The position numbers were made by a program, and so were the translations under genes. Under the pieces are notes generated by a model. The model had not been told where the DNA came from. It saw only the letters and a list, made by a program, of their open reading frames with translations, and searched no databases. This document shows, piece by piece, positions 9,129-10,950 of a stretch of DNA of 64,000 nt; position 1 is the stretch's first letter, and the number at the start of each line of letters is the position of its first letter. Origin of the DNA: Promethearchaeota archaeon (lineage in GTDB: Archaea > Asgardarchaeota > Lokiarchaeia > Sigyniarchaeales > SOKP01); contig JAEOTP010000043.1 in assembly GCA_016839765.1 (NCBI GenBank), positions 64,001-128,000 of the forward strand, written 5' to 3'.

Positions 9129-9881
9129 TTATTTCTGATCTACTTTAATAATACTTCCTTCCTCAAATGTAATAACCTTATCAGCAAGTTCAATTAAATA
9201 ATCATCATGAGTCGCAATAATTATTGTTTTTCCCTTATTTTTCATATCCTTAAAGAGATCCCTAATAAACAAGCTAGTCTTTTGATCTAAATTTGCTGTT
9301 GGCTCGTCTGCTAGTATTATAGGAGGATTATTAGCTAATGCGCGTGCTATTGCTACCCTTTGCTGTTCACCCGCAGAAAGCTGAAAAGGAAGATGTTCTC
9401 TTCTTTCTCCTAGACCAATTCTTTTTAATAGTTCAACAGATCGTTCTCTTTGTTCTTTTAGAGTCATCCCTGCTAAATTCATAGGGAATATTACATTTTC
9501 CTCGGCAGTCAAGGTGCTAATAAGATTATAATTCTGAAAGATAAAACCGGAATTTATTAATCTAAAAGTAGCTAAAGTTTCCTCCTCCATATCAGTAATA
9601 TTTACCCCACTATTATAAATAGTTCCTGAATTTGGAGAATCTAAACCTCCAATTAAATTTAACAGCGTAGTTTTCCCAGCACCAGAGTGTCCTTTAATAA
9701 CAATAAATTCGCTCTCTTCTACATTTAAAGACACATCATTCACGGCTCTAACTACAAAATCACCAATTTCATAGTCTTTAATTAGGTTTTTGGCGATAAT
9801 TATGGTATTTCCTTTTTCTAATTCTGGTTTAAAATTAGGCTCTTCCATTCTGTGCTCGTTGACTATTATATCTTTTTCCAT
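9129..9881 (-). CDS. ABC transporter ATP-binding protein, LolD/MacB family
   Basis: GHSGAGKT Walker A, LSAGEQQRV signature, ILADEPT Walker B, ATHD. Confidence 0.93.
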   Translation of the reverse strand: MEKDIIVNEHRMEEPNFKPELEKGNTIIIAKNLIKDYEIGDFVVRAVNDVSLNVEESEFIVIKGHSGAGKTTLLNLIGGLDSPNSGTIYNSGVNITDMEEETLATFRLINSGFIFQNYNLISTLTAEENVIFPMNLAGMTLKEQRERSVELLKRIGLGERREHLPFQLSAGEQQRVAIARALANNPPIILADEPTANLDQKTSLFIRDLFKDMKNKGKTIIIATHDDYLIELADKVITFEEGSIIKVDQK

Positions 9882-10005
9882 ATCTATTATATAATTTAAT
9901 ATTTTAAAGCTATTTTTCTAATAATTCATAGCTACTTAAAAATATTAATTGAAGGTTTTTGAATACATTTCAATATTATTATGTTTTTGGATATAATAAA
10001 TAAGA

Positions 10006-10013
10006 TTTATATA
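10006..10013 (+). promoter_or_regulatory. TATA box (TTTATATA) of the putative ncRNA
   Basis: Lies ~24 nt upstream of the first base of the structured region, the usual archaeal TATA-to-TSS spacing. Confidence 0.55.
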
Positions 10014-10036
10014 TCATCTTTTCATATTTCATCATT

Positions 10037-10200
10037 AGAGGGAAGTCGTGGATAAGTGTAAAAATATATAATATCCCCTAATTTCCTAATTAAACATCCA
10101 CGCGATTCGCGTGGCAAGGGTTACATGGTAACTAAGTCTTAGGTTTTATCCCCAAACTTAACCTCCTCGGAGGTTTCCTTTTCCCGACTCCTCTCTTCTC
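10037..10200 (+). ncRNA. Putative structured non-coding RNA of unknown family
   Basis: 5' AGAGGGAAGTCG (10037-48) pairs with 3' CGACTCCTCTCT (10185-96); four internal hairpins; GC-rich relative to flanks; TATA upstream, T-tract downstream; no ORF. Confidence 0.65.
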
Positions 10201-10208
10201 CTTTTTTT
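10201..10208 (+). terminator. Oligo-T terminator after putative ncRNA
   Basis: CTTTTTTT directly after the closing stem. Confidence 0.45.
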
Positions 10209-10314
10209 AAAGCTTCGTATAAACAAACCATTTTGTTAAAATTTATACATTATTAAGATTTTTAATAGTTAAGGTATATAATTATACAACGCAATTGAAT
10301 TAGGGATAATTATT

Positions 10315-10950
10315 ATGGATTTTGAGAAATTAACCGAATTAATTATAGAGTTAGAAGTAGATGATATTGCAGATGCTGTGAAAGAAGCTTTAGAAGTAGA
10401 TGATAAGGATCCATTTGATGTATTAAATGCATTAACAAAGGGTATGGATGAAGTTGGGAGAAGATATGAGGAAAAAGAGTATTATTTAACTGAATTAGTT
10501 CTAGCTGGAGAGACGATGAAAGAAGCATTTAAAATACTTCAACCAGCTTTAGCTACGTCTGACAAATCACAGGTTAAGACTAAGATCATTTTGGCTACAG
10601 TAAAGGGAGATAACCATGATATTGGCAAAAATATCCTTGGATCCTTGCTTTTGAGCTCAGGATTTGAGATTTATGACCTTGGAATGGACGTTGACGAAGA
10701 TACTATAGTGCAAAAGGTTAAAGAAACGGGAGCAACCATTGTAGGGTTAAGTACACTTCTAACTATGACTGTAGAACACATCAAAGTCGTTCATGAGGCA
10801 TTAAAAACAGCGGGGTTACGAGAACAAGTCAAGCTCATCGTCGGTGGTGCGCCACTCAACATGGAACTTGCCAAGAAACTCGGAGCTGATGACTTTGCAG
10901 ATGATGCTGTCGAGGGTGTAAAACATATTAAAAATTTTGCTGGAATGTAA
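10315..10950 (+). CDS. Corrinoid (B12-binding) methyltransferase protein, MtbC/MttC-like
   Basis: Cap domain GMDEVGRRYE...YLTEL; GDNHDIGKNI (DxHxxG); GLSTL; IVGGAP. Confidence 0.92.
   Translation: MDFEKLTELIIELEVDDIADAVKEALEVDDKDPFDVLNALTKGMDEVGRRYEEKEYYLTELVLAGETMKEAFKILQPALATSDKSQVKTKIILATVKGDNHDIGKNILGSLLLSSGFEIYDLGMDVDEDTIVQKVKETGATIVGLSTLLTMTVEHIKVVHEALKTAGLREQVKLIVGGAPLNMELAKKLGADDFADDAVEGVKHIKNFAGM

Follow-up and report, generated by a model that had tools for sequence, protein, structure and literature searches.

In the AT-rich Firmicutes, sRNAs of the RsaE/RoxS type carry repeated, unpaired C/U-rich UCCC motifs; as mimics of the anti-Shine-Dalgarno sequence, these pair with the G-rich ribosome sites of several mRNAs. 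Among archaea, sRNA162 of Methanosarcina mazei is a trans-acting sRNA that masks ribosome-binding sites. For the Asgard archaea, a full-text literature search found no paper describing a regulatory RNA. Here we report that positions 10037–10208 (+) of the window (the whole 64,000-nt stretch of DNA that was analysed) encode a free-standing RNA of about 170 nt, whose gene has a conserved BRE/TATA box and a T-run terminator and whose ends join in a long terminal helix. The gene is the representative of a genuine new RNA family, which is present as a single copy per genome and is limited to one family of the Asgard archaea (Promethearchaeota). We put the probability at roughly 55% that the product is a trans-acting base-pairing sRNA that mimics the anti-Shine-Dalgarno sequence and thereby occludes ribosome-binding sites. 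Mechanisms of this kind are known already; what is new is the RNA, together with its architecture and the lineage of its host.

Compared from general knowledge with the RsaE/RoxS type, the Asgard RNA shares an unpaired repeated C/U-rich motif, the proposed anti-Shine-Dalgarno mimicry and an AT-rich host genome (29.7% GC), but it has no sequence or model similarity to those sRNAs and carries an archaeal BRE/TATA element and an oligo-T terminator. Its putative seed lies in a large loop closed by a helix of 17–20 bp, whereas RsaE/RoxS seeds are found at the 5ʹ end or in hairpin loops before the terminator hairpin, and its match to the clear predicted targets, at 18–19 nt, is far longer than the Shine-Dalgarno core. 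With sRNA162, again on general knowledge, it has the proposed mechanism in common, namely pairing of an archaeal sRNA from an intergenic gene with the 5ʹ UTR and start region of an mRNA from another locus. In contrast to sRNA162, to which it is unrelated in sequence and phylum, the Asgard RNA occurs family-wide with an invariant putative seed.

The gene is flanked by an ABC-transporter ATPase gene (9129–9881, −) and a gene for a B12-binding corrinoid protein (10315–10950, +), and its features are collected in Table 1. An earlier note on this DNA had described a new structured Asgard small RNA with its own promoter and terminator, a description that the sequence comparisons below support, and its coordinates for all the elements of the locus were correct on re-inspection. 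The host genome (3.32 Mb, 96% complete) contains one full-length copy of the RNA sequence, so the gene is not a MITE; many dispersed copies, which the earlier note had named as the sign of such an element, are excluded by this single copy and by one copy each in 109 genomes. The Infernal comparison with Rfam suggested there assigned the gene to no family: at gathering thresholds, Rfam 15 gave no match over the whole window, and a permissive search of 9850–10350 gave a best E-value of at least 0.8 and at most 15 bits, against thresholds of 41–61. A tRNA search at the locus found none, and the open reading frames are spurious (at most 31 aa), in keeping with the absence of an ORF that had been reported.

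Table 1. Features of the RNA gene, in coordinates of the window
Feature	Position	Strand	Basis or remark
Archaeal promoter: BRE-like purine-rich stretch and TATA box (TTTATATA, 10006–10013)	10000–10013	+	Putative function, from sequence
P1, 5ʹ strand, and predicted 5ʹ end	10037–10048	+	Pairs with 10185–10196 (11 of 12); exceptions to Watson-Crick pairing are G-U at 10041/10192 and A·C at 10043/10190
P2, 5ʹ strand (GGAUAAG), stacked on P1 past bulged U10049	10050–10056	+	Pairs with CTTTTCC, 10178–10184 (6 of 7 positions)
G-less unpaired block: 19-mer AUAUCCCCUAAUUUCCUAA (10071–10089) plus UUAAAC	10071–10095	+	Invariant; proposed seed
Expansion hairpin CCACGCG-AUU-CGCGUGG	10098–10114	+	Lineage-specific variable insertion
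Motif AUGGUAACUAA	10125–10135	+	Sequence conserved across genera
Hairpin with loop UUAUCCCC (10146–10153)	10133–10160	+	Subclade-specific
Hairpin P5, AACCUC-CUCG-GAGGUU	10160–10175	+	Conserved
3ʹ strands of P2 (10178–10184) and P1 (10185–10196)	10178–10196	+	Pairing and covariation
Pyrimidine tail UCUCC and T7 terminator run (10202–10208)	10197–10208	+	Predicted 3ʹ end

The minimum free energy of the RNA is −47.1 kcal/mol, compared to −33.4 ± 3.5 kcal/mol in 200 dinucleotide shuffles (z −3.9), none of which was as good. When all homologues were aligned with MAFFT and folded with RNAalifold, the helices were not recovered, owing to variable insertions. The structure was then set by hand on six similar sequences and built into a model, R1, and realignment with Infernal recovered the helices; R1 misaligns the subclade of the window, which model R2 detects. 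The covariation alignment comprised 73 Infernal matches, 50 of them distinct. Among the 50 distinct sequences, 89.7% of the cells were paired over the whole structure, in an alignment that was fitted to the structure and so favours it, compared to 68% in column shuffles and 56–67% when the partners were slid by one to three columns. Both sides changed in 20 of the 21 pairs, and the covariation score of 0.51, versus 0.19, was reached by none of 500 shuffles. By helix, P1 was 90.5% paired with changes on both sides at six of seven pairs, P2 had such changes at all eight, and P5 at all five modelled pairs with 89.8% of the cells paired. The variety of pair types and the controls with slid partners make P1, P2 and P5 secure despite the structure-fitted alignment, and conservation and covariation, which the earlier note had proposed to look for in homologues, are both present in these three helices. 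In other genomes the P2 strands are swapped for GAAAUU/AAUUUC, GAAAAUU/AAUUUUC or CGGCGAGUA/UACUCCCG, and P5 is found as ACCUCAUUAUGAGGU, AAACCUGUACUUAGGUUU or CCAAAACCCUCGCGUUUUGG. Together, P1 and P2 form a rod of 17–20 bp that joins both ends of the RNA and closes a large loop.

The remaining hairpins are of narrower distribution. All four hairpins described in the earlier note are present in the window, and the one at 10161–10174 is conserved as P5, but those at 10098–10114, 10120–10132 and 10133–10160 (strands 10133–10137 and 10156–10160) are specific to the subclade of the window. Within this subclade the sequence of the first shifts while its pairing is kept (GAGC/GCUC, GGCG/CGCC), and it is missing from most homologues; the second is confined to the same subclade. 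Of 57 homologues, 40 contain the motif UAUCC; only 14 of these, eight from the subclade of the window, place it in a predicted hairpin loop, and much of the sister genus has lost it. A switch or pseudoknot between GGATAA (10050–10055) and TTATCC (10146–10151) had been suggested; the complementarity is there, but other genomes have a different P2 strand sequence and the alternative pairing is therefore not conserved. As for AUGGUAACUAA, its GUUAC partner (10120–10124) is found only in the subclade of the window, so the conservation of this motif is not owed to that hairpin.

The paired ends invite comparison with known structured RNAs. The purine-rich GAGGGAAGUCG on the 5ʹ side and, on the 3ʹ side, CCGGCUUC (motif CGRCUYC) look like the two strands, CR-I and CR-V, of RNase P helix P4, which would make the gene a reduced RNase P/MRP paralogue. 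This motif resemblance is the whole case for such a paralogue. Unlike P4, the helix here is plain and continuous, with no conserved bulged U; its strands vary freely by genus (e.g., GAGGGAACUCGAGAAAA), and the other conserved regions of RNase P RNA are lacking. Further, a canonical RNase P RNA is encoded on a different contig (RF00373, 126 bits), RF00373 has no match at the locus, and the Type-T model RF02357 finds nothing, so that we regard the paralogue as refuted in practice. The RNase P RNA of the host (G000:C6:6091–6415; L028:1501–1825) reads GAGGAACCUCACC where the usual GAGGAAAGUCC is expected.

Two other readings of the sequence were rejected. A telomerase-like template was considered for the tandem CCUAAUUU repeat, but the genome has no arrays of it and the contig ends carry no telomere-like repeat. 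A small protein was also considered: the AUG in AUGGUAAC opens a frame of 24 codons in one homologue, but the frame is not conserved, being only 5 codons long in the window and about 16 in another homologue.

The most conserved part of the RNA is the block at 10071–10095. The earlier note had seen here an A/U-rich single-stranded segment of about 40 nt, which contains the invariant G-less core. Its 19-mer, AUAUCCCCUAAUUUCCUAA, holds two CCUAAUU repeats, and the block was identical in all of the first 18 homologues, while the helices vary. The exact 19-mer was found across several genera. A scan of 185,579 species for an exact 18-mer of the block gave 69 loci, of which 66 belong to Promethearchaeota (Asgard) MAGs; this confirms the Asgard origin guessed in the earlier note. 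In the minimum free energy structure the block is unpaired, save for a weak UAAUU/AAUUA hairpin. Conserved, predicted to be accessible and flanked by covarying helices, it has the properties expected of the seed of a trans-encoded sRNA. The 3ʹ end of 16S rRNA in the genus of the window, read from another genome of that genus, is GGAUCACCUCCU, and the UCCCCU and UUUCCU of the block therefore resemble an anti-Shine-Dalgarno sequence. In the 96%-complete host MAG, the 16S rRNA gene is missing from the assembly. The block also occurs in altered form: four genomes of the sister genus have an sRNA without the AUAUCCCCUAA half, and in further genomes a hairpin is inserted between the halves or the second half is absent. 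The two halves may act as separate seeds.

To define the distribution of the family, model R2 was searched against the genomes of the family and of the class. The window's own RNA scored an E-value of 8e-9 (10050–10208), and exactly one match each was obtained in 109 of the 135 genomes of the same family, in 8 of its 13 genera. A class-wide sample outside the family gave a single marginal match only (E 0.009). BLAST against relatives likewise gave a single homologue for each of most of the genomes in the genus. One full-length copy (159.5 bits) is on contig DATKTW010000107.1, which is filed under a MAG of the actinobacterial Nanopelagicaceae; it scores the same as the copy of one Asgard genome, so the contig is probably mis-binned. 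The MAGs that genome taxonomy places in the genus or family of the window bear the NCBI labels Hodarchaeota, Hermodarchaeota, Odinarchaeota, Thorarchaeota and Promethearchaeota, and with such clashing labels within one genus or family, the names on the records of this group are not to be relied on.

In the genus of the window and in the sister genus, the RNA has the divergent ABC ATPase gene on one side and the corrinoid gene on the other, and in many genomes of the two genera it is 98–124 nt upstream of the latter, which is the usual distance. This position would suit a cis leader or riboswitch, for cobalamin or another ligand, that controls the corrinoid gene, a role that the earlier note had considered. 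The start region of that gene, GAAUUAGGGAUAA (10297–10309), which is conserved in the subclade of the window and partly complementary to the block, would fit as well. However, the T7 terminator is followed by a conserved TATA-like element, GTATATAA (10274–10281), about 35 nt before the corrinoid ATG, which suggests a separate promoter for the corrinoid gene. Three genomes carry an inversion of just the RNA module with respect to the corrinoid gene, and in another genus a TusA-like or DsrE-like gene takes the downstream place. No riboswitch model matches, cobalamin included, and the corrinoid start region ranks just 72 of 2986 for pairing. The inverted module, the TATA-like element of the corrinoid gene and the different neighbour together rule out a leader or riboswitch; the idea is largely refuted, and we give it only the slightest chance.

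The same inversion of the module on its own, and the conserved BRE/TATA box and T-run that bracket the RNA gene, suggest that the module is its own transcription unit. The promoter is kept as AAAGTTTATATAT or GTTTAAATA in homologues of several genera, about 24–25 nt ahead of a 5ʹ GAGGG, and the 3ʹ ends of the homologues conserve YUCUCC followed by 5–8 T. Termination at oligo-T is well established in archaea. The minus strand folds nearly as stably as the plus strand (z −3.6 vs −3.9), so fold stability alone gives no strand, and the counts of G-U versus A-C pairs (51 vs 39) leave the strand undecided. From the promoter, the terminator and the logic of the targets described below, which settle the matter, we infer that the plus strand is the one transcribed.

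To find further occurrences of the block, 154 genomes of the order were searched for the 19-mer, allowing at most two mismatches. In the sister genus there were several matches per genome, often about 1.3 kb apart. The extra matches were located on the opposite strand, 1–4 nt before the ATG; the genes, which encode proteins of about 420 aa, stand in tandem and belong to MFS_1 and MFS_3 in Pfam. The start of each MFS mRNA thus reads UUAGGAAAUUAGGGGAUAU, then 1–4 nt, then AUG, and is a perfect or near-perfect complement of the block over the ribosome-binding site. Altogether 21 MFS sites were inspected in 11 genomes of the sister genus, and the species-wide scan contained 13 exact MFS sites. Two genomes of the window's genus also have MFS sites, and across the two genera the matches are 17–19 nt long and end 1–4 nt ahead of the start codons. 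Most MFS orthologues in the window's genus are without a site; all genomes with MFS sites fall within the sRNA-carrying family. The MFS paralogues are old and their N-termini divergent, and the motif is nonetheless kept. When the sRNA of a genome was paired with the MFS start regions of the same genome, the predicted duplexes were outliers, with z from −3.3 to −8.1 in the two genomes tested that have the full block. In a closed chromosome, the sRNA is at 1.84 Mb and the MFS targets are at 0.23 Mb, 1.6 Mb apart, so the pairing would be in trans.

The MFS arrays of the sister genus (L059:2649–6605 in G091:C24, L060, L061, L062 and L063) consist of two to four anciently diverged MFS_1/MFS_3 paralogues with the same 19-nt motif before each start codon, and the motif variant of each paralogue is conserved across species. 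Two M29 aminopeptidase genes adjoin the arrays in at least two genomes (Pfam-checked for one).

These observations are consistent with a mechanism in which the block, held in the loop that the terminal helix closes, would serve as a seed and base-pair in trans with the ribosome-binding region of an mRNA, and this pairing would block the initiation of translation. The clear predicted targets are the tandem MFS_1/MFS_3 genes of the sister genus and of two genomes of the window's genus. Both the pairing in vivo and its repressive direction are proposed here from the sequences.

The 19-mer, shared by the RNA gene and the regions upstream of the MFS genes, might alternatively be a DNA operator that is bound by a regulator, with the complementarity of the RNA as a by-product. 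The direct repeat (CCTAATT twice) is of a kind seen in some operators, and an operator works in either orientation, which would explain the opposite strand sense at the two kinds of locus. The MFS genes, however, often stand three in tandem with spacers of merely 25–50 nt, so that what the motif marks would be ribosome sites internal to the array, as opposed to promoters; the genes are probably co-transcribed, and 1–4 nt before the ATG is the position of a ribosome site. In the RNA gene, moreover, the motif is about 35 nt inside a transcribed region with covarying helices. We consider an operator very improbable.

Whether the MFS motif depends on the block can be judged from the four genomes that lack the AUAUCCCCUAA half. 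There the MFS motif is fully kept and the predicted pairing is at background (z about +1.3 to −1.5), indicating that something else also keeps the motif in place, most simply its own role as the ribosome-binding site. This persistence would also be expected if the RNA were an RNP scaffold, in which the block, AUGGUAACUAA and the U-rich tail are protein sites (e.g., for an Sm-like archaeal protein) and mRNA pairing is absent or secondary. Sequence invariance of unpaired segments is typical for protein sites too, AUGGUAACUAA is conserved without a pairing partner or target, and the closed ends and U tail resemble stable RNP RNAs. On the other hand, an exact antisense match of 18–19 nt at the start codons of one gene family is unexpected for a protein site, the Rfam models of RNP RNAs give no match, and no protein gene is specifically linked to the RNA beyond the conserved ABC/corrinoid synteny. 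A TROVE/Ro60 gene (PF05731) is absent from the 96%-complete genome, in a search whose positive control in Deinococcus was found. A scaffold of this kind is unlikely in our view, and neither the scaffold nor the operator accounts as well as the sRNA does for where the antisense matches are placed.

The absence of TROVE/Ro60 also bears on the likeness to Y and vault RNAs that the earlier note had drawn. Like those RNAs, the Asgard RNA has its ends paired in a terminal stem, internal loops, hairpins and a 3ʹ U tail, but its conserved element is an antisense-type single strand and not a bulged helix. With no Rfam match either, the likeness is limited to the paired ends. A vault-repeat search gave no match but, run with no positive control, carries no weight. 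The protein sites and the pairing could also be combined: the RNA would then be the guide subunit of a novel Asgard RNP, with Sm-like proteins, for example, at the U-rich AAUUU-type sites and on the U tail, and with the block selecting RNAs. We hold this to be quite improbable; if true, it would provide a prokaryotic analogue of the guide or snRNP-type particles of eukaryotes, and not a plain sRNA in the bacterial style.

For the trans-acting sRNA, targets in the window's own genome were sought by duplex-energy scans of 8,335 and 2,986 start regions and by k-mer scans, which gave no convincing target. The top prediction, ranked 1 of 2986, was a gene for a membrane protein of the Steroid_dh family (polyprenol-reductase-like), whose 5ʹ UTR (G000:C6, L002:1489–1530) has 17 contiguous nt perfectly complementary to the block. 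As a target it is unconvincing: orthologues do not conserve the complementary stretch, and a reversed-block control in the wider scan reached similar energies. A partial site at an MFS_2 gene had rank 9; this site and that of the corrinoid gene were set aside as non-specific, since start regions like AUUAGGGAUA look like a common ribosome-site context. The closest MFS_3-type homologue of the genome starts 20 nt from a contig end, and no site is present in those 20 nt.

The locus is thus a concrete candidate for a regulatory RNA: a structured RNA that is single-copy and family-wide, captured by model R2, with a defined seed and with predicted targets in tandem MFS genes. The placement of the putative seed in an internal loop that is closed by a long terminal helix is unlike the usual layout of bacterial sRNAs. 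With this candidate, post-transcriptional control becomes directly testable in the prokaryotes that are most closely related to eukaryotes.
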